Assembly: GCA_035293165.1 (NCBI GenBank)
Contig: DATDOR010000159.1
Coordinates: 1 to 29,852, forward strand
Direction of reading: 5' to 3'
DNA: 29,852 nucleotides
Source: Anaerolineales bacterium
GTDB lineage: Bacteria > Chloroflexota > Anaerolineae > Anaerolineales > JABWBV01
The position numbers and the translations under genes are program-made. The notes beneath the pieces were generated by a model. It saw only the letters and a list, made by a program, of their open reading frames with translations, was not told where the DNA came from and ran no database searches. Positions within the stretch are counted from its first letter, which is position 1, and each line of letters begins with the position of its first letter. Shown one piece after another: positions 3,838 to 29,831 of the stretch.

Positions 3838-4361
3838 TTTCTATGGATTTCTAAAATCTCCACTGAAATTACCTCACACCCCCACAGAACCATCCCCTCC
3901 ACCAACCGGTTTTTAAGTTCAGACTCAATCCTCGCCCGGTCATGGATGATATCTCCGTAGGTCAGGCTGCCAATGATGGATTTCAGCCGGTTGCGGGTGG
4001 CCTCACGCACGGAGGTTGTCAAATCGGGGACGTTCAATATGCTCTTTTCCGGTTCAACGATACGATATCCGAGGCTCATCTGCACATTGACCCGCGCGTT
4101 GTCTTGAGTGGAGACTTCAGTATTGATCGTTTCCTTTTGCTCGCGCAAATCCACCTGAATGCCCCGATCAACAAAAGGCAACAGGAATATCAATCCTGGC
4201 CCTACAACTCGGACAAACCGCCCCAACCGGAAAATCGCCATCCGTGCATACTCCGGGACGATGCGGATGGCAATTGTGATAGCCAGGAGTATGACCCCCA
4301 GGAGAATCACTATCATACAAACCATCACAAGATAGGGTGCGTCAAAACCTGATAAACTCAT
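3834..4361 (-). CDS. SPFH/Band-7 (stomatin-like) membrane protein, short form
   Basis: N-terminal hydrophobic helix, then IVPEY.R..IFRLGRF..V.GPGL.FLLPFVDR...VDLRE and TQDN motifs. Ends right after the SPFH domain. ATGA overlap with the upstream ORF. Confidence 0.8.
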   Translation of the reverse strand: MSLSGFDAPYLVMVCMIVILLGVILLAITIAIRIVPEYARMAIFRLGRFVRVVGPGLIFLLPFVDRGIQVDLREQKETINTEVSTQDNARVNVQMSLGYRIVEPEKSILNVPDLTTSVREATRNRLKSIIGSLTYGDIIHDRARIESELKNRLVEGMVLWGCEVISVEILEIHRN

Positions 4362-4570
4362 ATGTTTTCATCCAGATCGGATTGCTCCCCACTTTGGATT
4401 GGAGGAGCATCTTTTTGCTGATATTCCTCACATTCCAACACTGGCAAAGGCGGGTATTTGGGAAGCCGAGGGTTGAGCTTGCTCGCCTCGCACAACCAAA
4501 ACACGCTTCCCCGGTCATTTTGTATTGTCCGGGCATGGGTGCAGGAGGCGCAAAGGCCGGGGGTTGTCAT
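4358..4570 (-). CDS. Small four-cysteine conserved hypothetical protein (70 aa)
   Basis: MTTPGLCASCTHAR...RGSVFWLC...PKYPPLPVLEC pattern (CxxC...C...C). ATG at 4570 preferred over the TTG at 4618 because the upstream part is heptamer-repeat DNA. Confidence 0.65.
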   Translation of the reverse strand: MTTPGLCASCTHARTIQNDRGSVFWLCEASKLNPRLPKYPPLPVLECEEYQQKDAPPIQSGEQSDLDENI

Positions 4571-4571
4571 C

Positions 4572-4604
4572 GGGAATTTGAAATTGGGTATTGGGAATCG
4601 GGGA
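4572..4604. repeat. Heptamer short tandem repeat (GGGAATT-like)
   Basis: gggaatt tgaaatt gggtatt gggaatc gggga. Confidence 0.55.
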
Positions 4605-7309: not shown

Positions 7310-8134
7310 ATGGAGCAAATCCTGGAAAAACCTGTTCCAAAACGGAAATCCCTGGCATGGCTCGTTTATCTTGCGGTTGCTATCGTCCTCTTCGGTTGGC
7401 TGTGGAATACACCCGAAGGCCTACTTGGAAAAGCGGATGCGATTGGGTACGCCGTCTGCCACCGGATTGATGTCCGTTCTTTCCATTTGGGAGATCGCCC
7501 GATGTCCCTCTGCGCACGCTGTACGGGAATGTACCTGGGCGCGTTGCTCGGACTGGCCTTTCAGGGGATTACCGCCCCCCGCCGGGGAAAATATCCGCCA
7601 AAACGCGTGATCGCTATCTTGACCGGATTGTTTCTCGTTTTTGGCGTGGATGGGTTGAACTCATTCGCTCACCTATTCCCTGGCGCCCCCGGAATTTATG
7701 AACCCAACAACATCCTCCGTATCTTAACAGGAACCGGATTGGGCATCGTCATGGCCGCTGTTGTTTACCCGGTGTTCAGCCAAACTGTTTGGACACACTG
7801 GGATGAACGCCCGGCTTTGCCTGGGATACGCCAATTATTGGTGATTCTCCTTCTGGGGTTAGGGGTCGATCTCCTGGTCATGACCGAAAACCCAATTGTG
7901 CTTTACCCGCTCGCTTTGTTGAGTGCTGCGGGCGTGCTGGTCATTCTGAGCATGGTTTATGCCATGCTCTGGTTGATCGTCCTCCGAGCCGAAAATCGTT
8001 ATAACCGTGCCTGGCAATTGATCACCCCGTTGGTGGGTGGTTTCGCGATGGGGCTGCTTCAAATCGCCCTCCTGGATCTGGGCCGTTATGCCCTCACCGG
8101 AACCTGGGAAGGGTTTCATGTGTTATTAGGATAG
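7310..8134 (+). CDS. DUF2085-family multi-pass membrane protein
   Basis: VCHRIDVRSF...LCARCTGMYLG signature, DG..S motif and about six hydrophobic segments. Start at ATG 7310 inferred from the -10 box 7 nt upstream (ATG 7301 is the alternative). Confidence 0.8.
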   Translation: MEQILEKPVPKRKSLAWLVYLAVAIVLFGWLWNTPEGLLGKADAIGYAVCHRIDVRSFHLGDRPMSLCARCTGMYLGALLGLAFQGITAPRRGKYPPKRVIAILTGLFLVFGVDGLNSFAHLFPGAPGIYEPNNILRILTGTGLGIVMAAVVYPVFSQTVWTHWDERPALPGIRQLLVILLLGLGVDLLVMTENPIVLYPLALLSAAGVLVILSMVYAMLWLIVLRAENRYNRAWQLITPLVGGFAMGLLQIALLDLGRYALTGTWEGFHVLLG

Positions 8135-8154
8135 AGATTGGAGAATGGAGATTG
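8134..8154. repeat. Heptamer short tandem repeat (GAGATTG-like)
   Basis: gagattg gagaatg gagattg immediately after the DUF2085 stop. Confidence 0.4.
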
Positions 8155-8238
8155 GTGAGACGGTAAAGAATTATTCCCGTAAATAAAATTAACCATTCCC
8201 CGCTTCTCCTTTTCCCTTTTCATAATCAGGAGTTTCCT

Positions 8239-8811
8239 ATGAACCTTCTTACCGGTATCCTTTCCGCTTTTGGCCTTTCTGCCAGCGCGGGGTTGAACGC
8301 CTACATACCCTTGTTGACCGTTGCCTTATTGGCTCGATTCACCGATCTGATTCAACTCTCCGATCCCTGGAACACCCTGGAAGACTGGTGGGTGATTGGC
8401 ACGTTGATTGTCCTGTTGTTCATCGAATTTTTTGTTGACAAAGTTCCTGCAATCAATCATATCAACGATGCCATACAAACCTTTGTTCGTCCTGCAGCGG
8501 GCGCAATTGCTTTTGCAGCCAGCGCAGGTGTTGTAACCGATGCCAGCCCAGTTCTATCACTCATTTTAGGGTTGGTTGTAGCTGGGGGGGTACACGCGAC
8601 GAAATCCCTGGCGGTCCGCCCGGCAGTTACCGCGACCACGGGCGGGGCAGGGAATATTCCGGTCAGTATTTTGGAAGATGTGATCTCGACCGTCATGTCT
8701 ATCCTGGCGATCATTATTCCCATTTTGTTTGCAGCAATTACCATTGTTGTCACAGCCTGGTTTGTATGGTGGTTATGGCGTCGCGCAAACCGGGCTTCGG
8801 CGACGACGTAG
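8239..8811 (+). CDS. DUF4126-family membrane protein
   Basis: FGLSASAGLNAYIPLL, EFFVDKVP.I.H.ND...TFVRP.AGA, PVSILED motifs; AGGAG RBS. Confidence 0.88.
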   Translation: MNLLTGILSAFGLSASAGLNAYIPLLTVALLARFTDLIQLSDPWNTLEDWWVIGTLIVLLFIEFFVDKVPAINHINDAIQTFVRPAAGAIAFAASAGVVTDASPVLSLILGLVVAGGVHATKSLAVRPAVTATTGGAGNIPVSILEDVISTVMSILAIIIPILFAAITIVVTAWFVWWLWRRANRASATT

Positions 8812-8830
8812 TTAAATCAACTCGCTTTCT

Positions 8831-8891
8831 CATAACTACTCTGCCCAGAGTAGTTATGCCCCGATTCGTCTTCTTTATTTTGAGCAGTTAC
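8831..8891. repeat. Degenerate copy of the GTAACTRCTCAG inverted-repeat family, with an internal perfect hairpin
   Basis: cataactactctg-cc-cagagtagttatg (13-bp perfect stem, 8831-8858) and right end ttgagcagttac (8880-8891). Confidence 0.55.
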
Positions 8892-8900
8892 AAATTCTCT

Positions 8901-8950
8901 GGTTCTTTGGGAATCGGCAGGGAGGCAACCACGTCAAATCCCAAAGAGCC
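8901..8950. mobile_element. 50-bp MITE, copy 1
   Basis: Termini GGTTCTTTGGGA...TCCCAAAGAGCC (11/12 inverted match); exact 8-bp direct repeat AATTCTCT at 8893-8900 and 8951-8958; 47/50 identical to 21413-21462. Confidence 0.88.
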
Positions 8951-9030
8951 AATTCTCTTTGGGTCTGCCGTAATAAACAGGGTGGGAGTATTTCCCGCTA
9001 AAAATGGAAGAGCCTTCTCTTTGAATTTCG

Positions 9031-9039
9031 TGGTATCAT
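9031..9039 (+). promoter_or_regulatory. Extended -10 promoter element
   Basis: TG-g-TATCAT upstream of a GGAGG RBS (9060-9064) and ATG 9073; flanked by a 7-bp inverted repeat aatttcg/cgaaatt. Confidence 0.45.
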
Positions 9040-9072
9040 CTCCTCGAAATTTTAGGACTGGAGGATGTCCCT

Positions 9073-9183
9073 ATGTCTATTTATCCTGGTTCTGAACAAC
9101 AACCCCCATCTTATTATGCCCCACCCAATAGTACAATGGCAGTTGTCAGCCTCATTTCGGGCATTTTGGGCTGGTCGGACTAA
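9073..9183 (+). pseudogene. Truncated DUF4190-like membrane protein (36 aa remnant)
   Basis: MSIYPGSEQQPPSYYAPPNSTMAVVSLISGILGWSD*: Pro/Tyr-rich leader plus first TM motif (A..SL..GILG); stop codon supplied by the repeat remnant starting at 9177. Confidence 0.6.
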
Positions 9184-9213
9184 TCCCCTTCCCCTTCCCA
9201 GCTAAGTAGTTAC
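9177..9213. repeat. Half copy of the GTAACTRCTCAG inverted-repeat family
   Basis: ggactaatccccttccccttcccagctaagtagttac matches 11430-11460 (gggctaatccccttcccagttgagtagttac) with one extra cttccc. Confidence 0.75.
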
Positions 9214-9243
9214 ATTCAAAATTTATTATCCGAGGAGAATAGC

Positions 9244-9402
9244 ATGAACGATCAATCTTTTGGTGAGCAGCCAAAAAACAACCGCAACATGATTATTATT
9301 GGTGTTGTTGTCGCAGTTTTGTTATGTTGTTGCTGCGTTACCGTGTTAGGCGCCTGGTATTATGGAGACCAGATTCTCCAGGCTCTTGGTATAACCTTCT
9401 AA
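9244..9402 (+). CDS. Small single-pass membrane protein (52 aa) with a CCCC motif; absent from the ORF track
   Basis: GAGGAG RBS at 9232-9237; MNDQSFGEQPKNNRNMIIIGVVVAVLLCCCCVTVLGAWYYGDQILQALGITF*. Confidence 0.7.
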   Translation: MNDQSFGEQPKNNRNMIIIGVVVAVLLCCCCVTVLGAWYYGDQILQALGITF

Positions 9403-9465
9403 TCCAGCCATTGTAAAATCCTACAACTGAATAGCCGGTTCCCTGATTGGGTGAACCGACATTTT

Positions 9466-10980
9466 TTATGGACTGACCCAAAACGCGCCGATTCCAAAAA
9501 CCCCCTCCCCTACCAACTGCGGCGCAAAATCGGGGGAGTGAGCGACATACAAGCCTTCCTGAGCAACAAAAAATAATGTCTCGCTTTCGGGACTCCATAC
9601 CGGTAGGGAAGCGGAGGACGAAAAAATATGTACGGGCGGCCCATCCAGCGCCCCCACCCACACGCCCGAAGGCAACGCCCATGCGAGGCGCTCACCCCAT
9701 CGAGATGCAGAGGGGAGAACGGGTGCAGGAGCCTCTAACTGGATGATGGAAAACACATCGAGGCTATCCTGCCGGAAGGCGTAAACATTTTCTGTTGTAC
9801 GGGCAAAGAATAATTGGCTTACCTGATCCCATACAGGTAAAAAAACTTCCTCGCTCAAAAGTACAAGCGGGGCAGGATAATCTGGTCCAAACAAGAGAAA
9901 TAACCCTGGCCCCACGCTTCCCTGACAGTGAGCAGAATACTGATCCACGGAAATCAACAAGGCTCCATTCCCCAACTCAGGTACAAAAGCTACGCCATTG
10001 AACGCCCCTTCCCAGATCATGTGTGTTTCTCCACTGGGTATGTCTACTGATAGGAGGCGTTCGTTTCCACACACGGGCGACCAGGAATGAACGAGAAAGG
10101 TATCCTCATCCTGCCAGCCGATAAACGTTTCTGCGGCACTCTCTTCGGGAGTATATAATTCCAACACGGCGCCTGTTTCCGTATCTACGGCCCACACACC
10201 AGCCATATCATACCCTGCGCCTGTTCCAAGCGTATTCACCCCGGCATGCAAAATATACCGCCCATCTGGTGACCAGGAAGGAGAAATCGCCTGGCTGGGA
10301 CCATCTGTCCAGCGGGTAATACCTGATTCTACCTGTTCTGGGTTCACGCCCCAAAAATTAACCATTGAAAAGGTGTACAAATCCGAACTCGGTCCTTCCC
10401 GCATCCCCATAAAAGCCAGTTGGCTGCCACCGGAGGACCAGGCGAAACTGGTTCGTTCAACGACGGCGCGCGCCGCTTCCATTTCGGGATCACCAGGGGA
10501 AGAATCTTCCAGGGGTTCATATTCTGGAGCAGTGAGTGGGATGGTCAGGGCAAGGGCACGTGGGAGCGTGAGGAGGTTCAGCGTCAGGTTACGCAGACGG
10601 GAATCCCCGGTGATAAACGCGGCGAATCCCCCTGCCGGGGCAGGCATAACCGAAGCATCCTGCGGGGCGAGGATGTGCCCATCATACACTTTTGTTAACC
10701 CTGTTCCATTCGGGCGAATCGTCCAAAGTGAGTCAGGAGTGATGATCACTAACCAGGGTCCGGTTGCGTCAGGAGAATCAGTCTGAGCCCCGGCAGGAGT
10801 GGGTGAACTGTCTACGGGCGGAGTCTGGGTGAGAGTGGGAGCCGTTGTTGATGATGGAACGGGTAGAGGCGTCTCCGTTAAGAGTAGGGAAACTTCCCCG
10901 GCCGGCGTGGGAAAAGAGGCGCATCCCGTGCTGGCGAAAAGAACGAGGATTGGGAGAAGAAAGCGCAACGGGTGGTTCAT
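9466..10980 (-). CDS. Putative lipoprotein with Pro/Thr linker and TolB-like (PD40) beta-propeller
   Basis: Signal peptide ending ...FASTGC, PT-rich stretch, FAWSSGGSQLAF, PSWSPDGRYILH, PVWSPESETLFF. Confidence 0.75.
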   Translation of the reverse strand: MNHPLRFLLPILVLFASTGCASFPTPAGEVSLLLTETPLPVPSSTTAPTLTQTPPVDSSPTPAGAQTDSPDATGPWLVIITPDSLWTIRPNGTGLTKVYDGHILAPQDASVMPAPAGGFAAFITGDSRLRNLTLNLLTLPRALALTIPLTAPEYEPLEDSSPGDPEMEAARAVVERTSFAWSSGGSQLAFMGMREGPSSDLYTFSMVNFWGVNPEQVESGITRWTDGPSQAISPSWSPDGRYILHAGVNTLGTGAGYDMAGVWAVDTETGAVLELYTPEESAAETFIGWQDEDTFLVHSWSPVCGNERLLSVDIPSGETHMIWEGAFNGVAFVPELGNGALLISVDQYSAHCQGSVGPGLFLLFGPDYPAPLVLLSEEVFLPVWDQVSQLFFARTTENVYAFRQDSLDVFSIIQLEAPAPVLPSASRWGERLAWALPSGVWVGALDGPPVHIFSSSASLPVWSPESETLFFVAQEGLYVAHSPDFAPQLVGEGVFGIGAFWVSP

Positions 10981-11075
10981 TGTTCGTGGGGGATGAGCGA
11001 GATGACAGTTCCGCGAGAGGCGGCAGCAATATTCGTGTCCGGGCGCTGGGCAATGATCCGTCGAATGGCTGCTCC

Positions 11076-11315
11076 TTACGATGCTATCCCTGGTTTATAA
11101 GTATGTGACCACCCTGCTCCGTCGCAGATTTTGCAGCGATCTTGCGTTTTTTCGTCGTAGCCGCGTCCCTCACACCAGGGGCATTTCTTAGCTGGCTGTG
11201 CGGCGAGCACGCTGCCATTTCCACGGCAAACGTGGCAAACCTGGTTGAGGTATTTCCCGGTGCCTTCGCACCAGGCACATTCTTCAGGCGCAAATTGGAT
11301 GAAGGGCGTAACCAT
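11076..11315 (-). CDS. Stand-alone DnaJ-type zinc-finger protein (79 aa)
   Basis: Four CxxCxGxG repeats: CAWCEGTG, CHVCRGNG, CPWCEGRG, CKICDGAG. GGAGG RBS before ATG 11315. No J domain. Confidence 0.82.
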   Translation of the reverse strand: MVTPFIQFAPEECAWCEGTGKYLNQVCHVCRGNGSVLAAQPAKKCPWCEGRGYDEKTQDRCKICDGAGWSHTYKPGIAS

Positions 11316-11354
11316 GAAATCCTCCAATGAGTTGAATTATGAAGCGTAGAGGTA

Positions 11355-11363
11355 ATCATAGCA
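11355..11363 (-). promoter_or_regulatory. Extended -10 element for the zinc-finger gene
   Basis: Minus strand TG-c-TATGAT, about 40 nt upstream of the start codon. Confidence 0.5.
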
Positions 11364-11404
11364 CAATCCCCCCTTTTATCGCCAGTTGATCAGGTAACTT
11401 TATT

Positions 11405-11460
11405 GTAACTGCTCAAGCTAAGAAAGAAAGGGCTAATCCCCTTCCCAGTTGAGTAGTTAC
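11405..11460. repeat. Complete 56-bp inverted-repeat element (GTAACTRCTCAG family)
   Basis: GTAACTGCTCAA (11405-11416)...TTGAGTAGTTAC (11449-11460), 11/12 inverted match. The cyclase TAA stop (11457-11459) lies within the terminal repeat. Confidence 0.8.
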
Positions 11461-14400
11461 TCTTTGTTCATGATCTCCGCGTGAACCCGGATATTTTCCA
11501 GATAAGAATGCCATAGCGCATCGTCTTGGATGCGATTGCCGATTTTTTGTAACAAGACGCGGGCGGTTTCAAGCACCATCCTCGCGCGGGGATCATTCGC
11601 CGAAGATAACACTTGATAACACGTCCAATAGACCTGAAAAGGATGTTTTGTGCCAAATAGCCGGTGTTCGCTGGCATCTTGTGGATTTGCCCATGCCGGT
11701 TCAAGATGCTGGATGACGGGAGCGATTTTTTCAAGTGCCAGAGAATGTTTTCCTTGCACCATCAACAAATGCGCTTGTGCGGTGTAGGTTTCCATCAACA
11801 CGTTTGTCGCTGCGTTTTCTTTGAAGATGTGTTCCGCTTGCGCGAGGGCTTCGTCCGCTTTCTGATATTGCCTCTGGCATGTATAAGCCTGTCCGGCAAC
11901 CAGCCATGCTGCACCCTCTGTGGGAGGATCACGCCATTTTTGGACGTGGGCAATGGCGGCCTCGGCTTGTTGTAACGCCGTTTCCAGTTTTTCTTCACGC
12001 AAGGCTAAATAACCGCTGTTGAGGTAAATATGTCCAATGCCGCGATGGTCGTTGATTTCTGTGTAAATGGACAGCGCGCGGTCATAATAACCTTTTGCAG
12101 TATTGTATTGCCCCAGGCTGGTTGCGATCTGACCGAGATGGTTTTGTGCATGTCCCTGTCCATGCCGGTCACCGGTTTCCAGCACGAGAGAGAAAACGCG
12201 TTGAAACGTCTCAATCGCCAAAGGATAATCCCCACGGCTGGCGGCGAACCCGCCCAAATTGGCGAGCGTGTTCCCCTCGCCTTGCCGGTCCCCTGCTTTT
12301 TGATAGACCTCAATCGCTTCCTGGTAATGTGCTTTCGCCTGGTGGTAATTTCCTCGATCTTGCTCCAGAATTCCCAGGTTATTGATGCAAGCCGCTTCAC
12401 CCCGCATATCACGGCTTTCTGGCGCGCGGCAAATGTTCAAGGAGCGCCGGTAACGATTTTCGGCAGCCTCCAGGTTCCGTAAGAACCAAAACACCACGCC
12501 CAGGTTACGCCAGATTTCTCCAACCAGTTTGTGATCCGTGAAGTCCTTCGCCCGCGTTAATTCCAAGGCCCTCTCCAACTGATCTTTGGACTCATCGTAG
12601 TGGCCCTGCAACCACAGGGTATGCCCCAGGCGAACGTAGGCGGATGCTTCCAGGTTGGGATGGCGACCTTCGACGAGCGCAATACATTGTCTGGCAGCTT
12701 TGACGGTTTGGGGGTAGTCGTTGATCGCCCGGTAGTAGTAGGCAAACTGGAGGGCAGCTTCTGCCTGGGACAAGGGATCGTCTAACCCTTGGGCGAGGTC
12801 TTGCAGCGTTTGGCAGGCTGTTTTTTGGGAGTCGCGTTTGCCTTCCAGGTCGTAAATTTTCTCCATCGCCAAGGTAAGGCGGAAGCGTGTGGCAAGATCG
12901 CCTGCTGGAGCTAAAGTCATCGCGCGGGAGTAGTAATCCAGGGCGCGCGCATTTTGGTAGTCATAAGCCGCGGCGTCTCCGGCCTTTTCGATATAGAGAA
13001 GCGCTTTTACGGGAAATCCGGCCTGTTCGTAATGATAGGCCAATTCCCCAAAATGTGCGCTGATCCCGGCGGATTGCAATTTTTCCAGACTCTCAGCCGC
13101 GAGTGTGTGCAGTTCTCGGCGTCGAGAGAGCAATTGCATGTTGTAGGCCGTATCACGGAGCAACGCGTGCCTGAACAAGTATTGCAGTTGGTTGAGTGCA
13201 GACCAGATCGCCGCCTGAGATGCCTGATCCACTTTTCGCATCAGGTCGTGGTCTTCTTGCAGCATTTGGGCCAGAACAAGGATTTCGAATTCCCGACCTA
13301 AAACAGACGCAGTTTGAACGACCGTTTTCACTTCCTGCGTCAGGCTGTCGAGGCGGGCAGTGAGAATGGCGCGCACGTCTACGGGCAGGAATTCGGTCTC
13401 GATTTCGTCAGACAGAGAGAGGCCGGTTTCGGTTTCGATCAGCAGGTCGTTTTCTTCGAGGTAGAGCAGTATTTGTTCGGCGAAAAAGGGGTTGCCCTCT
13501 GCGCGGTCATAAAGGAAGTCAATCAGCGCGGGGGTGGCGGGCTGGTGGAGAGTTTCCTCCGCGAGTTGAACCAGCCCTGGCCGTGTCAGCGGTGACAGGG
13601 TTAATGTCTGGCGAGGTCCCGCGCTATTCTTGAGCACGTCCCCGCGCGCGCGGGTAGTGATGAGCATCCCGATGGGGTAGGTTTCAATGTTCCGGGTCAG
13701 ATATTCGAAGAACAACTGGCTATCTTCATCCAGCCATTGGGCGTCCTCGACAAAAACTACCAGAGGCTGGCGCAGACTTTCCGCTTTTAGGAGGGCTTTC
13801 AAACCCAGTAGGGTGTTTTGGAAGCGTCCTTGCGGGTCTAGTTGTTCATAATGTGAGCCAGGCCACCGCAGGCCGATGAGCGCGCCAAGACAAGAATAAG
13901 TCAGGCTGAGTTCGCTTTGTAATTGCAAATCGCCCCTATCAATCAGGGCGCGGAGTTGGGTCATGAAGTGTGTCTGGTTGGTGGATGCACTGGGTGCATT
14001 ACTCGTTTGCTGAAAATACTGGCGTAGGAAAGAGCGAATGGGGGCAAAGGAAGTGTTTTGCGTTTGATCAGACTGAAACGTGAAGAACCGGCAGCCTGGC
14101 AAGCGCTTTTGCAGGGTGTGAACGAGGCGGCTCTTCCCGATGCCCACTTCCCCCTCGATGACAGTGGTTCCAGAAAAACGGCCTTCGAAAATCGGTTGCA
14201 AATACCCGGCGAGTTCTCCAAGTTCACCTTCGCGCCCGACCAATTCGCCCTCGTAAAAGACTTCTTTCGGCTTTTGACGATGGCTCAAGCGGAAAACGGG
14301 AAGTTCATTGCCAAATCCTTTGAATTGCAGATGGCCTACCCATTCCAATTCGCACGATGGGGGGGCGCGACGGGCAACTTGCTCATCCACCCAAACTTCG

Positions 14401-15530
14401 CCCCACGGTGCAGAGGCCATACACCGGGCCGCCAGATTGACCCCGCGCCCGTAACAGGCGTAATTGGTTTGAATTGCCGCGCCAATAAAGCCCGTATACA
14501 TGAACTGATAGGTCATTCCGCCACGAATAGGAAAGGGTAAAGCTGCCTGCAAGGCCAGGGAAAAATACATCGCTCGCTCCAGGTCGTTTTCGTAGCTGGT
14601 AGGGGTGCCCCAGTAGAGTAGGATATGGCAGCCTTTATCGCCAAACAGGACGCCATTTAAATAACCGCCGTATTGAGCTTGCAATACAAAGACCTTTTGC
14701 AGGGTGTTGTCCAGCCGCCCGGCAAGATGGCTTTCTGGCAGGTTGATCATGAGCGAGACAACCTGGCGAAACTCGCCTCGAACCGTCTGGTTGCGGATCG
14801 CGGATGGGATAAGCTGCGCGATGATTTCCGGGGTGATAGGGAAGGACTCCGTTGAAGGGGGAGGGGGTGCATCTTTCCGCGAAGGTTTCGTGGGGAATTT
14901 GAGGGCACGGATGCGGAAAAAATAGGGAGACCCAATTGTCTCAATCGTCACCGTTGCCCGAAGGATCTGCAACACTTTCGTGCTGATAATAATTTCTCCG
15001 GGCCGGGCCATGTTTTCGGCAATGGTGCTATCTTCGATGGCCGAACCATGAAAATAGTATGCAGCTACACGTTCGTGATCCCCCTTTTCGTCTGGCAATA
15101 CAATCCCCCACTCGACTTCTCCAAAGGCGATCCCCAGCTTGATCTCAAACCGGAAAGTTGCGAATGGTGTGGTCTGTTCAGGGTTTGCGAGCATGTGTCT
15201 ACGAATGCCCGACGCGGCGTTCACAGCATTCTGGCAAACCTGGAAGTGTTCTCCCGGAAACAGCGCGTAGAACGCATCCCCTGCAAACCCGGTGACAAAA
15301 CCGCCAAACGCGTAGATTTGTTCGATCAAGGGATCAAAAACAGCCTGAATCGTATCGGCCAGCACTTCGGCCCCAGCCGCGCCCCTTTCAAGCAGCGTTT
15401 CCGTTAATGCTGTAAAACCGGAAATATCAACGAACAAACTGGCAGCATCAAAATTCCCGTGCAATTCGTTTTCTGCCAGTTTGTCCAGGATAAATCGAGG
15501 AACAAGCGTCTGTGACCAATGTTCTTGCAC
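11457..15530 (-). CDS. Class III nucleotidyl cyclase (tandem domains, sAC-like) - STAND/AAA ATPase - TPR protein
   Basis: FVDISGFTALTE and FAGDA (metal Asp), second domain GDKG and VNLAAR, Walker A GEVGIGKS, Walker B VFVEDAQW, GNPFF, then many TPR-like helices. GTG start. Confidence 0.9.
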   Translation of the reverse strand: MQEHWSQTLVPRFILDKLAENELHGNFDAASLFVDISGFTALTETLLERGAAGAEVLADTIQAVFDPLIEQIYAFGGFVTGFAGDAFYALFPGEHFQVCQNAVNAASGIRRHMLANPEQTTPFATFRFEIKLGIAFGEVEWGIVLPDEKGDHERVAAYYFHGSAIEDSTIAENMARPGEIIISTKVLQILRATVTIETIGSPYFFRIRALKFPTKPSRKDAPPPPSTESFPITPEIIAQLIPSAIRNQTVRGEFRQVVSLMINLPESHLAGRLDNTLQKVFVLQAQYGGYLNGVLFGDKGCHILLYWGTPTSYENDLERAMYFSLALQAALPFPIRGGMTYQFMYTGFIGAAIQTNYACYGRGVNLAARCMASAPWGEVWVDEQVARRAPPSCELEWVGHLQFKGFGNELPVFRLSHRQKPKEVFYEGELVGREGELGELAGYLQPIFEGRFSGTTVIEGEVGIGKSRLVHTLQKRLPGCRFFTFQSDQTQNTSFAPIRSFLRQYFQQTSNAPSASTNQTHFMTQLRALIDRGDLQLQSELSLTYSCLGALIGLRWPGSHYEQLDPQGRFQNTLLGLKALLKAESLRQPLVVFVEDAQWLDEDSQLFFEYLTRNIETYPIGMLITTRARGDVLKNSAGPRQTLTLSPLTRPGLVQLAEETLHQPATPALIDFLYDRAEGNPFFAEQILLYLEENDLLIETETGLSLSDEIETEFLPVDVRAILTARLDSLTQEVKTVVQTASVLGREFEILVLAQMLQEDHDLMRKVDQASQAAIWSALNQLQYLFRHALLRDTAYNMQLLSRRRELHTLAAESLEKLQSAGISAHFGELAYHYEQAGFPVKALLYIEKAGDAAAYDYQNARALDYYSRAMTLAPAGDLATRFRLTLAMEKIYDLEGKRDSQKTACQTLQDLAQGLDDPLSQAEAALQFAYYYRAINDYPQTVKAARQCIALVEGRHPNLEASAYVRLGHTLWLQGHYDESKDQLERALELTRAKDFTDHKLVGEIWRNLGVVFWFLRNLEAAENRYRRSLNICRAPESRDMRGEAACINNLGILEQDRGNYHQAKAHYQEAIEVYQKAGDRQGEGNTLANLGGFAASRGDYPLAIETFQRVFSLVLETGDRHGQGHAQNHLGQIATSLGQYNTAKGYYDRALSIYTEINDHRGIGHIYLNSGYLALREEKLETALQQAEAAIAHVQKWRDPPTEGAAWLVAGQAYTCQRQYQKADEALAQAEHIFKENAATNVLMETYTAQAHLLMVQGKHSLALEKIAPVIQHLEPAWANPQDASEHRLFGTKHPFQVYWTCYQVLSSANDPRARMVLETARVLLQKIGNRIQDDALWHSYLENIRVHAEIMNKE

Positions 15531-15536
15531 CCTGGT

Positions 15537-15542
15537 AGTATA
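15537..15542 (-). promoter_or_regulatory. -10 box placed for a leaderless cyclase transcript
   Basis: Minus-strand TATACT, 6 nt, then GTG at 15530; no SD sequence. Confidence 0.5.
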
Positions 15543-15549
15543 TCGAAAT

Positions 15550-15879
15550 TTATGTGGGTTTGGGATTGTTATTACTTAATAGCAACGGAAATAAACAGGT
15601 GCGGTAACTTCTCAGCCCAGAGTTGAAATAACCCGAAAAAAGGTGTGCTTGGGGGTGCACACCCCCAAGCGCACTGATGACGGCGTCCGCGCCCGCGATG
15701 GCCTCCACCACTTTCCCAACCTCGGTGATTTCGCCCTGCACCACGTGCAGGTTTTCGTGCTTATACCTCAATTTTGCAGGGTTGCGAACGTACGCAGTCA
15801 CATTATGCCCTGCATCCAGCGCCTGCTCGACGAGATACCGGCCGGTTCGTCCAGTCGCGCCAAAAATCGTAAGTTTCAT
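15550..15879 (-). pseudogene. Truncated NAD(P)H-binding protein (flavin reductase / BVR-B-like SDR)
   Basis: IFGATGRTG Rossmann motif through ADAVISALG (native part about 15664-15879); the remaining ORF is translated repeat and intergenic DNA. Confidence 0.8.
15604..15674. repeat. Partial composite element: GTAACTTCTCAG end plus most of the CCCGAAAAAAGG...GGGGG hairpin
   Basis: Same layout as 29720-29831: terminal repeat at 15604-15615, then cccgaaaaaaggtgtgcttgggggtgcacacccccaagc; the right part is missing. Confidence 0.72.
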
Positions 15880-15903
15880 AATCGTTTCTCTTTTACAAAA
15901 GCA

Positions 15904-16329
15904 TCAAGGACAATCATTTAAATCTTTCAGCCCTTGCAAGGTCTCAGCGCTTTCGGAATCTTTGATGTAATCAAAATCATTGATAGCTATTGTCAGTCCA
16001 TCACACCAGGCTTTGTTCGGCCCGGTCTGTTCCAGAGCACTTGTCAGCCCGTTGTAGCCGTCCGAATAACTATCCAGCAAATTCCGCAGACGGCTCACCT
16101 GGTCTTGGGTAAGTTCCCATTCAGTTTTGGTCGGGGCAGGCGTTCTTGTCGCCGTTGGTTCTATGGCAGGTGTTTCCGACGGCAACTCGACAGGGGATTC
16201 AGTGACCTGAGTTGTTGGTTCGGCAGTGGGTGCGGGAGGGGGAGGTGTCAAAGTTGGAGGTGGAACAGACGTGGCTGGAACACATGCCGCCAGGAAACAT
16301 AGAATCAGAATGATCCATCGCTTCATCAT
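15904..16329 (-). CDS. Hypothetical lipoprotein with Pro/Thr-rich linker
   Basis: MKRWIILILCFLAAC lipobox; PT-rich segment; AGGAG RBS overlapping the upstream stop. Confidence 0.75.
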   Translation of the reverse strand: MMKRWIILILCFLAACVPATSVPPPTLTPPPPAPTAEPTTQVTESPVELPSETPAIEPTATRTPAPTKTEWELTQDQVSRLRNLLDSYSDGYNGLTSALEQTGPNKAWCDGLTIAINDFDYIKDSESAETLQGLKDLNDCP

Positions 16330-16332
16330 AAA

Positions 16333-17445
16333 CTACTCCTTGTTGAATTTCGATACATCCTCCTCCGTGAATACCTGAATTGAACCCGGTTCCAACTGCA
16401 ACCGGACGGAATCTCCTTCCCGCGGCAATTGTACCCCCGCAGAAAAATCAAACACCAACGCAATCCCATTTATTGTCATCCCCAAGCGCTGAACGCTTCC
16501 CCGAAAAGAAATTTCCCCGGCAACTCCCTCCAACTGAAAAGTCTCCTGTTCCCTTGTCAAACGAACCCTGTCCGGGCGGATCAACACCGTAACCTCTTCT
16601 TCCTCAAACCGGGGAGGGTCGCTGTTTACCAAAAATTCACCCACCCCCGTCATGATCCGCCACCCCTGTCCCGAACTTTGCACCGTCCCCTCCAAAAGAT
16701 TCCCAAACCCTAAAAACCGCGCCACGAACGGACTTGCCGGATTCTGGTAAATTTCTTGCGGCGCCCCGATTTGCTCTACCTGCCTCGCTCGCATTACGAC
16801 CACTCGATCCGCAATCGCAAACGCCTCCTCCTGATCGTGCGTCACATAAATCACCGTCTGCTCAAGCTGGCGCAGAATCCCGCGCACCTCCACCATCAAA
16901 CGCTCTCGCAGCCCCCGGTCCAGCGCGCCCAACGGCTCATCCAGCATCAACAACCGCGGCTTCGGAGCCAGTGACCGCGCCAGCGCCACCCGCTGTTGCT
17001 CCCCGCCTGAGAGGGTAGAAACGTCGCGTTTCTCGAAACCTGGCAAGCCGACGAGATGCAGGAGTTTCTCTACCTCCTCCCCCCTCTCCCAATGAGAGAG
17101 GGGAGCGAAGCGCTGCTTCGCTTGGGGGTGAGGGAGAAACCGCAACCCAAACGCCACATTTTCCCCCACATTCATATGCGGGAACAACATGTAATCCTGA
17201 AACATCAACCCAAACCTGCGTTTGTGTGTCGGCATTCCGGCAAGCGAATGGCCCTCCCAAAGAATCTCCCCTCCGTCCGGCGCCTCCAACCCGGCGATCA
17301 GGTTCAACAGCGTGGACTTCCCGCACCCACTCGGCCCCAACAACGCGACAATTTCTCCCCGCGCGACATCAAACGAAACGCCATCCAGCGCGCGGGTTTC
17401 GCCAAATGATTTTTGAACATTCCGTAAAGAAAGAACTGGATTCAT
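16333..17445 (-). CDS. ABC transporter ATP-binding subunit (PotA/ThiQ/FbpC-like, C-terminal TOBE region)
   Basis: Walker A GPSGCGKS, Q-loop FQDY.LFPHM.V.ENVAFGL, LSGGEQQRVALAR, LLMLDEP, VTHDQEEA. No permease or binding-protein gene is adjacent. Confidence 0.9.
   Translation of the reverse strand: MNPVLSLRNVQKSFGETRALDGVSFDVARGEIVALLGPSGCGKSTLLNLIAGLEAPDGGEILWEGHSLAGMPTHKRRFGLMFQDYMLFPHMNVGENVAFGLRFLPHPQAKQRFAPLSHWERGEEVEKLLHLVGLPGFEKRDVSTLSGGEQQRVALARSLAPKPRLLMLDEPLGALDRGLRERLMVEVRGILRQLEQTVIYVTHDQEEAFAIADRVVVMRARQVEQIGAPQEIYQNPASPFVARFLGFGNLLEGTVQSSGQGWRIMTGVGEFLVNSDPPRFEEEEVTVLIRPDRVRLTREQETFQLEGVAGEISFRGSVQRLGMTINGIALVFDFSAGVQLPREGDSVRLQLEPGSIQVFTEEDVSKFNKE
17077..17136 (-). repeat. GC-rich palindromic repeat lying in frame inside the ABC ATPase gene
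   Basis: Minus strand ctccctcacccccaagcgaagcagcgcttcgctcccctctctcattgggagaggggggag; hairpins agcgaagc/gcttcgct and cccctctc/gagagggg; translates as LPHPQAKQRFAPLSHWERGE. Confidence 0.7.
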
Positions 17446-17468
17446 GTCACAAAACCAAACAGCTAATC

Positions 17469-17483
17469 GTCATAAGTTATGAC
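17469..17483. promoter_or_regulatory. Perfect palindrome, possible operator
   Basis: GTCATAA-G-TTATGAC in the divergent gap, just downstream of a minus-strand TATAAT (about 17493-17498). Confidence 0.35.
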
Positions 17484-17589
17484 CGTGATTATAACGACAA
17501 TCTCCAATCCTTCGGCTTCTCTCAGGACAAGTCTCTAATCTCAAATCAACAAATCAGCGATTTCAAATACACAATCAAAGGAGTTTAAA

Positions 17590-18353
17590 ATGACCCCCAC
17601 CCTCCTCATCACCGGCGGCTCCGGCAACTTAGGCCGCAAACTCATCCCCCATCTGCTTAAAGAAGGCTATTCTGTCCGCGTTTCCAGCCGCAGCGACCGC
17701 AAACCCAACTTCTTTCCTGAAGCAGAATGGGTACGCGCTACCCTCGAAACCGGCGAAGGACTGGCCGAAGCGGTGCGCGGTGTTGATACGATCATCCACG
17801 CGGCGTCGGACGTGATGAACGCAAAAAAAATAGACGCAGTGTACCTGCTCCGGGAAGTGTTCGACTACGAATATGCCGAAATCGCCAAAATTGTAGACAA
17901 AACCGAAGACAACTGCCACCAGGTCTTCAGCCGTGCCAAACACTACATCACCCAACGTCGCCCGCGCTTTAAACCCAATCCCGAAGAGGAGCACCGTCTC
18001 GTCGAGCAGTTCCTGGAAACCCTCAATGGTGGAAACATGGATGACCTGCTCGAAATCCTGGCCCAAGACATCGTCGTCTACTCGGACGGGGACGGGAAAG
18101 CGTTTGCGGCCAAGAAACCGGTCGTGGGGATTGAACTGGTCGCCCGGTTCTTCTTCGGCATCGTCAAACAGGCTCCTCCCAGTTTGGAGGTGAGATTTGC
18201 CGGCTCGAATGGCCTGCCATCATCAACTTTATTGACGGGGTTCCCCACAGCGTGCTGGCGTTCCAGATTTTCGACGGGCGGATTCAGAATGTGTTTGCGG
18301 TGTTGAACCCGGATAAGTTGAGGAATGTTCGTTTTTACACGACAAACGACTAA
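17590..18353 (+). pseudogene. Chimeric remnant: 5' end of an NAD(P)-binding SDR gene joined in frame to the 3' part of an ECF41/SigJ-type sigma factor gene, with a later frameshift
   Basis: aa 1-82 ITGGSGNLG...VDTIIHAAS; from 17836 AVYLLREVFDYEYAEIA...NCHQVFSRAK (sigma region 4) and YSDGDGK (SnoaL-like, DGGG-type motif). The frame from 18219 gives IINFIDG...IQNVFAVLNPDKL to TAA at 18351-18353. Confidence 0.8.
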
Positions 18354-18361
18354 TCTTCCTG

Positions 18362-20176
18362 CTAGTTTGAAATGGGCCAGAGAAATAAGGCCATTAACAC
18401 GACGATGATCGCAACGAGAATCGTTAGAGGAGTACCTACTTTTAGAAAGTCGTTAAACTGATACCGCCCAGGGCCATATATCAATAAATTTCCGTGATGT
18501 CCAATGGGGGTTAGAAAGGAAACGACAGCTGCCATGGCTACGGCAATTACATAAGGTTGGGGAGATTGGTCGAGCGCCAAAGCGAGAGAAACCGCGACCG
18601 GCCCAAGCAAAGCAGTTGTCCCTGCATCAGACATCAACTGAGTGATAATTGCAGAGATGACAAATAAAATGAGTAAAACAAGAAAAGGGGGCCATCCAGC
18701 GACTATCGTTTGCAACCAACTGGCGATTAATTCAGATAGCCCGGTTTTCACCATAGCTAACCCCAAAGGAATCGCACCTGCAATAAATACATAAATGCGT
18801 GTATCTATGGATTTATATGCCTGTTGAAGCGATATACACCTGGTCAGGATCACGGCAGTTGCTCCCGCTAACAAAGCAATGTCCACCGGAAGCAGATTGA
18901 ATGCTGCCGCCAGAACGGTCACAATCATAATGCCCCCGACTAACCCGGCCTTATAGCGGCGCTGGGGTTCTCCATGAAATGGAGCGAGCATGAGAAAAGC
19001 ACGGGTTTCATTTAACCGGCTGATGGCTGCTTTATCTCCCATCAGCACCAGAACATCTCCGGGGCGCAATGCCACGCGGGAAAGTTCTGCGCGCATCCAC
19101 CCTTTTTGCCGCCATATTCCAACGACTAATAAACCATATCGCCGTCGAAAGTCTAATTTTGCCAGGGTTTGCCCCACCAGTTCAGAACTGGGGGCAACGA
19201 CTGCCTGCACAAGCTGTTTTTGACCATTATCATCGTCCTTCTCGGTGCCATTCCCGTTTTCCTGGTACTTTACGACAGGATGCAAGGCCATTCCTGGTGC
19301 TTCCTGGATGGCGGCCAATTCCTCCGGTGTCGTCCGTACCGTGAGCACATCTCCTTCCCGGACCTTTCGCGAGCGGAACGGTTTGGGTGTAATACGGCCG
19401 AACCGCAGCCACGTGACTACTTTAAAATGGTGGCTATCTTCATTCTCTATTTCCTCAATGGTTTTTCCGATAAAGTCCGAACCAGTCAAAACCAGGATTT
19501 CTGTGTAATATCCATCCAGACGAAAACTTTCCCCATCTATATCGCCCGCTGGCCGATCAGGGAGAAGGAAGCGGCCTGCCAGAAGCATAAACAGGATACC
19601 GGCAACGGATATAACCAACCCAATGGGAGCAATAGAAAATATCCCCAACCCCGATTGCCCGGCTTGTTTGAGCAGGCTATCCGCAATGAGGAAAGCGGGT
19701 GCGCCCAGGATGGTGATCGTGGTTCCCAGAGAAGCTGCAAAGGACATTGGCATGAGCAATCGAGAAGGAGAAATGTTTTGCTCCCGGCAAAGTTTAAGGG
19801 TGACGGGGAGCATTATGGCTGTAATCGTTACGTGATGTGTAAAGGCGGATAGGGCCGCGACGGCCAACATCATCACGACCATGACCCGGTTGTAGCCTTG
19901 CCCCGCAACTTGAACGATCCAATTCCCAATGTGGTCAGAGAGACCTGTAGCGTAGAAAGCCCCACTGAGAACAAAGATCGCCGCAATTACAATCGCCGGT
20001 TCACTACTGAACCCAGATAAAGCCTCTTCTGGCCCCAAAATTCCTGAAACCGCCAGGGCGACGATGATTATAACAGCGGTCAAATCCACCCGAATTTTTT
20101 CGGTTATTAGAAGGAAAAAAGCCGCGATGAGGATGAGAATCAATAATACCTGATGAAGATCAAGGGGAATGTTCAT
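18362..20176 (-). CDS. SLC13/DASS (CitMHS-like) permease with two TrkA-C domains
   Basis: TEKIRVDL, ALSGFSSE, MPMSFAASLGTTITILG, two soluble TrkA-C-like repeats, FLTPIGHHGNLLIYGPGRYQFNDFLKVG. Confidence 0.9.
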   Translation of the reverse strand: MNIPLDLHQVLLILILIAAFFLLITEKIRVDLTAVIIIVALAVSGILGPEEALSGFSSEPAIVIAAIFVLSGAFYATGLSDHIGNWIVQVAGQGYNRVMVVMMLAVAALSAFTHHVTITAIMLPVTLKLCREQNISPSRLLMPMSFAASLGTTITILGAPAFLIADSLLKQAGQSGLGIFSIAPIGLVISVAGILFMLLAGRFLLPDRPAGDIDGESFRLDGYYTEILVLTGSDFIGKTIEEIENEDSHHFKVVTWLRFGRITPKPFRSRKVREGDVLTVRTTPEELAAIQEAPGMALHPVVKYQENGNGTEKDDDNGQKQLVQAVVAPSSELVGQTLAKLDFRRRYGLLVVGIWRQKGWMRAELSRVALRPGDVLVLMGDKAAISRLNETRAFLMLAPFHGEPQRRYKAGLVGGIMIVTVLAAAFNLLPVDIALLAGATAVILTRCISLQQAYKSIDTRIYVFIAGAIPLGLAMVKTGLSELIASWLQTIVAGWPPFLVLLILFVISAIITQLMSDAGTTALLGPVAVSLALALDQSPQPYVIAVAMAAVVSFLTPIGHHGNLLIYGPGRYQFNDFLKVGTPLTILVAIIVVLMALFLWPISN

Positions 20177-20232
20177 AACGGTTTTCGCTTTATACAGTTT
20201 TCAGAAAAATTACTTGGGCTCGCAGTTACATT

Positions 20233-20946
20233 CTATACAGGCAAATTTACCGAAACACAGTAATTGAAATTCTCTGTTTCCTCAAATTTCATTTCCCCTT
20301 TATGCGCGAGCACAATCCGATGGGCTAACACGATTCCAAACCCAAGTCCCTTTCTCAGGCGAGGATGGTTTTCAAAATTCTGTTTCGTTGTTTCCAGAGT
20401 ATCATCAAGAAGAATGAATGGATTGATTTTAGGGCCAGAATCAAACAATCTAATCTTGACAACCCTGCCCTCCCACAGCGTTTCCACCATAATCTTCGAG
20501 GATGGCGGAGAACATAAGATACTGGCGTAAATGAGATTACCTAAGGCTTGAGCGAGTCGATCTGGATCAGCATAAATATCTGACAGATTTTCACTAAAAT
20601 GGAGTTTCCATTGGAGCTTTTTTTCTGGGGCAATTTCTTGCCAGGTAGCCAAAATGGTTGTTAACCATTTAGAAAGATTGATTTTACGGCGGCTAAGTTT
20701 GATTTTCCCCGTTCGAATGCTTTGTAACAGAATCCAGTTTTCAAATAGATAGCGAAGGTAACGAAGTTCATTATCCATTCCGCCAAGCAGGTCACGGCGC
20801 AGTTCAGGATCCTGAACTGCGCCGTTCAATAGGGCCTGGTTTGCAGAAAGCGTTCCCCCCAATGAACTGCCAATATCTGTAACAAGGCTGGGTAACAACA
20901 ATTTTTCCATGTTTTCCAGGAATGTATTCACGTCAACCTGCCCCAT
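20233..20946 (-). CDS. Histidine-kinase-like protein lacking the phospho-acceptor His (pseudo-kinase)
   Basis: HisKA-like helix LVTDIGSSLGG...GAVQDPELRRDLLGGMDNE; ADPDRLAQALGNL; degenerate boxes DSGPKI and GLGFGIV...IVLAHKG. AAGGAG RBS. Confidence 0.75.
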   Translation of the reverse strand: MGQVDVNTFLENMEKLLLPSLVTDIGSSLGGTLSANQALLNGAVQDPELRRDLLGGMDNELRYLRYLFENWILLQSIRTGKIKLSRRKINLSKWLTTILATWQEIAPEKKLQWKLHFSENLSDIYADPDRLAQALGNLIYASILCSPPSSKIMVETLWEGRVVKIRLFDSGPKINPFILLDDTLETTKQNFENHPRLRKGLGFGIVLAHRIVLAHKGEMKFEETENFNYCVSVNLPV

Positions 20947-20989
20947 TTGATCATTGGTCGTAACTCCTTTTGAAAGCTAATCCTAACAA

Positions 20990-21280
20990 CTACCGTCTCA
21001 GGTATATAACTCTACGCCGGAGCAGAAGGCTGGCAATTCCCGTAAAGATGGCCGAACCGAGGGTTGCCCATACGATGGGAATCGTTTGACCTTCAACGGT
21101 GACAGGAAGCAGGAGGGGTAATCCAAAAGATTGGGCCATCCATTGGCCGATAATCGCACCAATGAAGCCCACGACCATGGAGACCAGACATCCCCCGAGC
21201 GTGTATCCTGCAATTGCCTGTCCTAAAGCCCCAACGACGGCAACGATCAAAAGGTAGATGAGAAATCCAACGAGTGTCAT
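20990..21280 (-). CDS. GlsB/YeaQ/YmgE-family (transglycosylase-associated) small membrane protein
   Basis: Three hydrophobic Gly-rich helices, GCLVSMVVGFIGAIIG; GGAGG RBS before ATG 21280. Confidence 0.85.
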   Translation of the reverse strand: MTLVGFLIYLLIVAVVGALGQAIAGYTLGGCLVSMVVGFIGAIIGQWMAQSFGLPLLLPVTVEGQTIPIVWATLGSAIFTGIASLLLRRRVIYLRR

Positions 21281-21307
21281 ATTGCACCTCCAATGCGAAT
21301 TTACATT

Positions 21308-21373
21308 AGGGTAGCAAAGATTTTCGTCGGATGCCTTAAGTTTGGCTTTCCGCAACCTTAAGGAAGGCTTAAG
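21308..21373 (-). promoter_or_regulatory. Regulated promoter P1: phased CTTAAG boxes plus extended -10
   Basis: CTTAAG at 21368, 21357 and 21335 (11 and 22 bp steps), 21-nt spacer, TGc-TACCCT at 21316-21308. Confidence 0.75.
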
Positions 21374-21412
21374 GGAATCGTCTGATGTGCGCTGAACTCT
21401 CGAAAAAAGTTC

Positions 21413-21462
21413 GGTTCTTTGGGAAACGGCGGGGAGGCAACCACGGCAAATCCCAAAGAGCC
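21413..21462. mobile_element. 50-bp MITE, copy 2
   Basis: Same terminal inverted repeats as copy 1; exact 8-bp direct repeat AAAAGTTC at 21405-21412 and 21463-21470. Confidence 0.88.
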
Positions 21463-21478
21463 AAAAGTTCTATTCAGT

Positions 21479-22180
21479 TTATGAGTCAAAGTGTGGAATG
21501 AATTTGTACCCTTTCCCCCGTACCGTGATGATCCGCTCAGGATATTTTGGATCATCTTCAATTTTTTCTCGTAACCAACGGATATGGACATAGACAACCT
21601 GAGGTTGCCCTTCATATTCTGCGCCCCATACCTGATTGATGAGGGAGTCGACCGAAACGACTCGTTCGGGTTCTATGGCCAACGCGTGGAGCAAATCAAA
21701 CTCCCGAGGCGATAAGTTTAGCTCTTCTCCGCGCAAGGTTGCAACAAAACGGATTGGGTTAATCTCTAAATCTCCTACGGAGATGGGGGTATGGATGGCT
21801 GCTTCAGCGGGGTTTTTGATGCGTCGAAGAACCGCTCGGATCCGGGCAATCAAAATGGGCAAATCAAATGGTTTGGTGATGTAATCATCTGCGCCAAGCT
21901 CCAACCCTAGAGCCTCGTCGAATTCACGGCGTCGCGCCGTTAAGAAGATGACGGGAAATGTATGTTGGGTTTTTAATTTTCGTAAAGCTTCGAGGCCATC
22001 CATCCCTGGCAGACCAATATCCATGAGAACCAGGTCTGGTGGATCACGCCGGACGATCTCCAGGGCATCTTCGGCATTTGAGGAGGAAGTGACTTGATAG
22101 CCAGCTTGTTCCAGATTAAATGCAAGACTGCGGCGTAAGAGTTTTTCATCTTCGACCAATAAGATATGATCAGCCATCAT
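21479..22180 (-). CDS. OmpR/PhoB-family response regulator (REC plus winged helix)
   Basis: LLVEDE, phospho-Asp in DLVLMDIGLP, FLTA, ADDYITKPF, LSPREFDLL, VYVHIRWLREKIE, ITVRGKGY. Confidence 0.95.
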   Translation of the reverse strand: MMADHILLVEDEKLLRRSLAFNLEQAGYQVTSSSNAEDALEIVRRDPPDLVLMDIGLPGMDGLEALRKLKTQHTFPVIFLTARRREFDEALGLELGADDYITKPFDLPILIARIRAVLRRIKNPAEAAIHTPISVGDLEINPIRFVATLRGEELNLSPREFDLLHALAIEPERVVSVDSLINQVWGAEYEGQPQVVYVHIRWLREKIEDDPKYPERIITVRGKGYKFIPHFDS

Positions 22181-29719: not shown

Positions 29720-29831
29720 GTAACTACTCAGCCGGCGAGGGGATTAGCCCGAAAAAAAGGTATGCGTGGGGGTGTAGACCCCACGCATACCTTTTTTTCG
29801 GGAAACCTTCTCTCTTAGCCTGAGCAGTTAC
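29720..29831. repeat. Complete 112-bp composite element: 56-bp GTAACTRCTCAG element with a 56-bp hairpin insert
   Basis: GTAACTACTCAG...CTGAGCAGTTAC ends; flanks align with the reverse complement of 11405-11460; 24-bp perfect stem 29748-29771 / 29779-29802 with a 7-nt loop. Confidence 0.85.

Follow-up and report, generated by a model that had tools for sequence, protein, structure and literature searches.

A recently active family of miniature inverted-repeat transposable elements, probably derived from an ISL3-family insertion sequence, in an uncultured Anaerolineales bacterium

Two copies of a 50-bp element

We analysed a stretch of 29,852 nucleotides (the window), which is contig C159 of the genome assembly of an uncultured Anaerolineales bacterium (GCA_035293165.1) and contains two copies of a 50-bp element. 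Copy 1 lies 89 nt past the stop codon of a DUF4126 gene and 122 nt ahead of a small open reading frame (ORF) on the + strand that starts at 9073 and is conserved in a same-genus genome (G001). Copy 2 is found 8 nt past the stop codon of a gene for an OmpR-type response regulator, and the longest possible start of a Transgly_assoc gene lies 49 nt downstream of it (Table 1). A previous reading of the window from its sequence alone (the sequence-only reading) had described the two copies as a very short MITE, or miniature inverted-repeat transposable element, whose differing 8-bp target-site duplications record independent transposition.

The positions and structure given in that reading are confirmed to the base: the copies are identical at 47 of 50 positions (94%; 3 positions differ), and each has 12-nt terminal inverted repeats (TIRs) and lies between exact 8-bp direct repeats that differ from those of the other copy. 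The 12-nt termini of the element, GGTTCTTTGGGA and (read from the opposite strand) GGCTCTTTGGGA, are complementary at 11 of 12 positions. If up to one mismatch is allowed, the terminal 12-mer has 6 matches in the window, versus 0.5 expected, and none of 100 shuffled sequences reached 6. As single-stranded DNA, copy 2 is predicted to fold with a 12-bp terminal stem (-13.8 kcal/mol, z -4.3). No transposase domain was found in the larger ORFs of the window; the sequence-only reading had likewise seen no transposase in the window.

Table 1. Coordinates of the two copies, their neighbouring genes, and related insertion sequences. Positions without a prefix refer to the window.
Feature	Position	Strand	Size or class	Details
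DUF4126 gene	8239-8811			stop 8809-8811
Left target-site duplication, copy 1	8893-8900			AATTCTCT; exact repeat of 8951-8958
MITE copy 1	8901-8950	+	50-bp class	TIRs 8901-8912, 8939-8950
Right target-site duplication, copy 1	8951-8958			AATTCTCT
Transgly_assoc gene	20990-21355	minus
Left target-site duplication, copy 2	21405-21412			AAAAGTTC
MITE copy 2	21413-21462	+	50-bp class	TIRs 21413-21424, 21451-21462
Right target-site duplication, copy 2	21463-21470			AAAAGTTC
OmpR-type response regulator	21479-22180	minus		stop 21479-21481
ISL3-family insertion sequence	L001:452-1742		1291 bp	Zn_ribbon_ISL3, HTH_Tnp_ISL3 and DDE_Tnp_ISL3 domains
Relative of the insertion sequence	L027:215-1505			intact; exact 8-bp duplication GTATATAT
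Relative of the insertion sequence	L023:1429-2720			intact; 7/8 duplication GTAAAAGA/GGAAAAGA

A high-copy family with discrete size classes

We searched the genome (4.58 Mb in 759 contigs, 85.5% complete, A+T 47%) by BLAST with the two halves of the element and found 189 left-end and 193 right-end matches. Pairing of these ends gave 145 copies. The 50-bp class has 56 members, the 57-bp class 15, and the 110-bp class 58; in addition, single copies range from 45 to 111 bp (among them copies of 45, 46, 48, 53, 56, 60, 67, 98, 99, and 102 bp). In the 110-bp form (e.g., G000:C315:26501-26610), a perfect palindrome of 54 nt lies between these same ends, and the 67-, 57-, and 50-bp forms are progressive losses of this palindrome. 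Among the 110-bp copies, 19 are mutually identical, and 33 of 55 copies in the 50-bp class match one or other of two master 50-mers exactly. Relative to the commonest 50-mer, copy 1 has two substitutions and copy 2 has one. The family stands out chiefly for its 50-bp subfamily, which is at the lower size limit for MITEs; the median size of prokaryotic MITEs in a large survey was 104 bp (PMC11602168).

The left-end 25-mer occurs 188 times in this genome with up to two mismatches. With the same tolerance it is absent from 40 relatives, including a same-genus genome, and the exact 25-mer is absent from 185,579 species genomes. Because of these absences, the family appears, as far as we searched, to be restricted to one species or strain cluster. 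The genome also contains shorter degenerate relatives of about 36 bp (G000:C501:~5183-5218) and about 50 bp (G000:C259:~4233-4272), with ends GGCTCTTTAGGA.

Target duplications and empty sites

Both flanks were available for 141 copies. An exact 8-bp duplication flanks 79 of these, with 77 different 8-mers, and another 25 have an 8-bp duplication with one mismatch (so 104 of 141 have at most one mismatch). As a control, we displaced the right 8-mer by 8 nt, which gave no matches. The duplicated 8-mers are 78% A+T, versus 47% for the genome, with A enriched in their first half and T in their second. Insertion is biased toward intergenic sites and away from long open frames: 43% of insertion points lie within open frames of at least 150 amino acids, as compared to 89% of random points.

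We identified three sites with a filled and an empty form, and in each the two forms differ by exactly the element plus 8 bp. First, a metagenome contig from the Joint Genome Institute (JGI) has a 50-bp copy (L108:673-722) between two copies of CATCTTTT, and our genome's contig C205, whose sequence is 98.7% identical to the flanks, has a single CATCTTTT (at ~4567-4574) and no element. Second, a 110-bp copy at C97:165-274 has the duplication AGAATATT, and the corresponding site at C702:10229-10340 has a single AGAATATT and flanks that are 97-98% identical; these two contigs overlap and are probably strain variants. Third, a 50-bp copy at C42:3417-3466 (duplication AAAAAAGG) interrupts a copy of another abundant repeat; intact paralogs of this repeat, about 100 in number, have a single AAAAAAGG. 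Overall, the element is short (MITEs are well under about 500 bp) and non-coding, it has TIRs and fixed-length duplications of variable sequence, its many copies are dispersed, and it has filled and empty sites; these are the properties of a MITE. Independent transposition, which the sequence-only reading deduced from two loci, is strongly supported by about 190 copies with 77 distinct exact duplications and by empty sites with a single 8-mer.

For the two copies in the window, we found only the filled form. We compared contigs from four public runs over positions 8000-22000 of the window (contigs can show presence only). At site 1, contigs of three runs, from three studies, bridge the filled form; at site 2, the contigs are broken at the element. 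None of the contigs of the four runs showed a joint skipping either copy, and no empty form of either copy was found in these contigs or in the relatives that we compared. Although site 1 is in synteny with G001, the intergenic region there is shorter by about 175 bp and too diverged for alignment, and G001 thus does not provide a clean empty site. Five relatives yielded no ortholog of the spacer at site 2. More broadly, 48 JGI contigs carry the element, with flanks that are 97-100% identical to our genome, and reconstructions of our genome's empty sites had no empty counterpart among these 48 contigs.

As a side observation, the arrangement in a metagenome strain (L107) suggests a deletion or rearrangement associated with the MITE: compared to our genome (G000:C616:1525-1746), a 50-bp MITE without a duplication takes the place of 220 bp of other-family repeats.

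A link to ISL3-family insertion sequences

A search of the whole genome against Pfam found exactly one ISL3 DDE domain, on contig C654 (locus L001), within an insertion sequence (IS) of the ISL3 family. The ends of this IS begin GGCTCTCTGGGATTTGG and, on the other strand, GGCTCTTTGGGATTAAG. Over the terminal 12-14 nt they are identical to the ends of the MITE, and 18-19 of 25 nt agree in total; at the right end, the IS and the MITE are identical in their last 14 nt. Close relatives of the IS, with 87-92% protein identity, lengths of 1291-1293 bp, and the same ends, are found in metagenome-assembled genomes (MAGs) of Anaerolineales and in soil and other metagenomes. Intact relatives are among those in Anaerolineales MAGs and metagenomes, and two of them have duplications (Table 1). 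The IS and the MITE agree in having 8-bp A+T-rich duplications. In a plasmid collection, the only matches to the L001-type IS were over 79 nt of ISPpu12-type ISL3 transposase genes.

The pattern of the terminal 12-mer has 345 matches in the genome, and all but 13 of these are inside MITE ends as defined by BLAST. The 13 outliers are mostly further diverged MITE ends, and one is the L001 IS; no other IS was seen among the 345 matches.

Several observations weigh against the derivation of the family from an ISL3-family IS. The L001 copy, which is the only ISL3 copy assembled, has an in-frame TAG (L001:680-682) and no target duplication. It sits on a 3.2-kb binned contig that lacks the genome's characteristic repeats (its flank matches a same-family genome at 69%, which is the same level as the window). 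Beyond the terminal 12-16 nt, the ends of the IS and the MITE diverge, with differences at 6-7 of 25 positions, so the true partner may be a cousin of the L001 IS that is missing from the assembly or extinct. We found no full-length IS whose ends are exactly those of the MITE in the assembly (among internal unpaired ends and ends at contig edges), in 80 ISL3 loci of other genomes, or in 48 metagenome contigs. (As the MAG is 85.5% complete and fragmented, repeats are probably under-assembled.) Among the MITE copies, 37 of 141 have no recognisable duplication. Finally, one site has 57 bp in L149 and 99 bp in our contig C286, with the same duplication AAAAAAGT, and another has 57 bp in L143 and 50 bp in our contig C33. 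Unless these are assembly chimeras, such differences between strains imply that in-place resizing or gene conversion occurs. At 11 sites, the JGI contigs have the same size form as our genome.

On balance, we have high confidence that this is a real and recently active MITE family that derives from an ISL3-family IS. In the mechanism that we propose, the element would retain only about 25 bp of each IS-type end. An ISL3 DDE transposase, which could be the L001-type transposase or a close relative, would bind these ends in trans and insert the element at an A+T-rich target with an 8-bp stagger, and repair of the stagger would duplicate the 8 bp. The 110-bp form would lose its central palindrome to give the 57-bp form and then the 50-bp form, and each form would amplify on its own.

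In all close relatives of the 1292-bp IS (L001:930-990; L022, L023, L024, L026, and L027), the transposase is split into OrfA (154 amino acids, with the Zn ribbon and helix-turn-helix) and OrfB (265 amino acids, with the DDE domain). The two reading frames share about 52 nt, at a GGGCAAAAAAACGACGG that is strictly conserved. The overlap looks like a site of programmed frameshifting or transcriptional slippage, unlike the usual single-ORF layout of ISL3.

Is the 50-bp form the moving unit?

If the family is of ISL3 type, then the 50-bp form very likely amplified autonomously, with the 50-bp element itself as the moving unit. The strain polymorphism at L108 and C205, where a 50-bp insertion is present or absent, favors this view. 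The other way to obtain 50-bp copies is for ISL3-type insertions of 110 or 57 bp to be shortened in place, either by deletion of the palindrome or by gene conversion from short copies. The same-site size differences between strains are what this would produce, and the single copies of 45-102 bp show that palindromes are deleted in place. A G/A polymorphism at position 9 of the element, which is seen in several size classes, also fits. So does the mode of transposition: ISL3 is listed among the IS families with circular intermediates (bioRxiv 10.1101/2023.06.07.543989), and a double-stranded circle of 50-58 bp seems to us sterically implausible.

The junctions argue otherwise. The 55 copies of 50 bp all have the same compound junction (GGAGG and then CAACC, versus GGAGGTCGGCATTAACC in the 57-bp form), which would require at least two events, so its identical recurrence is improbable; in contrast, the in-place deletions that we see are heterogeneous and occur in single copies. 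Two master 50-mers account for most of the 50-bp copies, and the homology available to gene conversion would be only 25 bp per side. Furthermore, the fraction of copies with exact duplications is similar for the 50-bp class (31 of 55) and the 110-bp class (34 of 55). We therefore consider shortening in place to be improbable as the source of the 50-bp copies.

A stronger version of the claim for autonomous amplification is that the 50-bp form is itself an efficient substrate, has reached at least 56 copies in this way, and defines the minimal cis requirement of an ISL3 transposase. We put this forward tentatively and think it rather unlikely. It would conflict with a free double-stranded circular intermediate, the pathway presumed for ISL3, because a circle of 50-58 bp would be too small to close. 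If it is true, then the 50-bp element would have to use another route, such as cut-and-paste or one in which ends of different copies pair. In the assembly, right ends and left ends were never seen abutted across a spacer of up to 20 nt.

Other origins for the element

The sequence-only reading suggested an origin from the IS6 or IS1595 family. Both families make 8-bp duplications, and the ends of some IS6 elements begin with GGTTCT or GGCACT. Profile searches of the whole genome with the IS6 transposase (PF13610, IS6/IS240, DDE_Tnp_IS240) and the IS1595 transposase (PF12762) each gave no matches, while the control genomes did give matches. As the genome is 85.5% complete, this absence is not proof. 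The MITE's termini match the ISL3 IS instead. We consider either of these families to be a highly improbable source. Overall, we assign the MITE to ISL3 because the ends are shared with an ISL3 IS, this IS has the genome's sole ISL3 DDE domain, IS of this type make 8-bp duplications, no IS6 or IS1595 transposase was found, and there is a precedent in Microcystis (see below).

A non-transposon structured repeat, whether a REP/REPIN-like element moved by a RAYT or a selected regulatory hairpin, would explain why the element folds into a hairpin, lies mostly between genes, and has no Rfam match, but REP-type elements create no target duplications, and this explanation is refuted by the variable duplications, by the filled and empty sites, and by ends that match an IS, which leaves it with almost no probability.

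Genomic context of the two copies and a second repeat family

The sequence-only reading had placed copy 2 between the stop codon of the regulator and a promoter, P1. The copy does lie between that stop codon and the Transgly_assoc gene, but a scan for the sigma-70 consensus found nothing at the proposed promoter. Simple scans for promoters and terminators also found nothing in or beside either copy, and site 1 matched no Rfam family. We regard the element at both sites as most likely a neutral passenger in intergenic DNA. As it can form a stable hairpin, an effect on transcripts is possible.

Contigs of two public runs join position 11431 of the window to 15632 and skip a gene for a 1357-amino-acid cyclase/AAA/TPR protein (11457-15530). 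The matching sides of this joint are only 24-25 nt and both ends are inside repeat copies, so this is probably a repeat-to-repeat artefact, though it could be a deletion allele.

The genome contains another, unrelated high-copy repeat family with GTAACTRCTCAG-type ends (358 exact matches to the 12-mer, versus about 1 expected). It has members in the window at 8831-8892 and 29720-29831, and an A7-hairpin-T7 module, which resembles a two-way terminator, is often found inside it. MITE copy 1 lies directly after a stretch of this family, and several MITE copies are inserted into its members. The hairpin of this family recurs, nearly unchanged, as the central palindrome of the 110-bp MITE. Furthermore, in several chimeric copies (C675:3111, C668:4604, C404:4567, C268:6495, and C181:988), the left half of the MITE and the hairpin are followed by the other family's T-run and CTGAGYAGTTAC end, which suggests either that the two families have recombined or that they share a mobile hairpin module. 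The HIP1 motif (GCGATCGC) is not enriched (43 occurrences versus about 70 expected), so a cyanobacterial origin was rejected; relatives of the window and of the IS indicate Chloroflexota/Anaerolineales.

Implications

With its family assignment corrected to ISL3, this element represents a recently active, species-restricted burst of MITEs in an uncultured Anaerolineales lineage. Our literature search found no paper describing MITEs in this lineage. Many contigs end inside copies, so the repeats break the assembly, and insertion polymorphisms of the MITE mark differences between strains. Copies also adjoin regulatory regions, as downstream of the response regulator in the window. A self-amplified 50-bp subfamily would suggest that ends of about 25 bp each suffice for an ISL3 transposase, and it raises the question of whether ISL3 really needs a circular intermediate.

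Comparison with known systems

The IS6 family (IS26, IS257) resembles the MITE in its 8-bp duplications and in ends that begin with GG. The similarity of the ends stops after about 6 nt, and the genome lacks a detectable IS6 transposase. IS6 elements move by cointegrate formation and, to our knowledge, are not known as a source of MITEs.

The Correia/NEMIS elements of Neisseria are likewise high-copy intergenic MITEs with size classes that are determined by an internal segment (~155 versus 107 bp), and their mobile unit was also defined by pairs of filled and empty sites (PMC2229807). They differ in their ends and target duplication, their parent transposase is unknown or different, and their shortest form is twice as long.

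Within the same genome and lineage, the 1291-1293-bp Anaerolineales ISL3 IS shares with the MITE the terminal 12-14 nt and the 8-bp A+T-rich duplications. Unlike the MITE, the IS is autonomous (OrfA and OrfB) and has no central palindrome, and it has the 6-7 subterminal mismatches in 25 nt.

The closest precedent for the ISL3 assignment is a 187-nt MITE of Microcystis aeruginosa PCC 7806, which has ends GGCTCTTCG and 8-nt duplications and has been attributed to ISL3 (PMC11448079). Like the present family, it is non-coding, has TIRs that begin with GGCTCTT, and makes 8-nt direct duplications, and ISL3 transposases with matching ends are found in the same genome (PMC11448079). The Microcystis MITE is nearly four times longer, is from Cyanobacteria rather than from Chloroflexota (Anaerolineales), and has no similarity to our element beyond the first 7 nt. 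Unlike the Microcystis MITE, the Anaerolineales family is divided into discrete subfamilies of 110, 57, and 50 bp.

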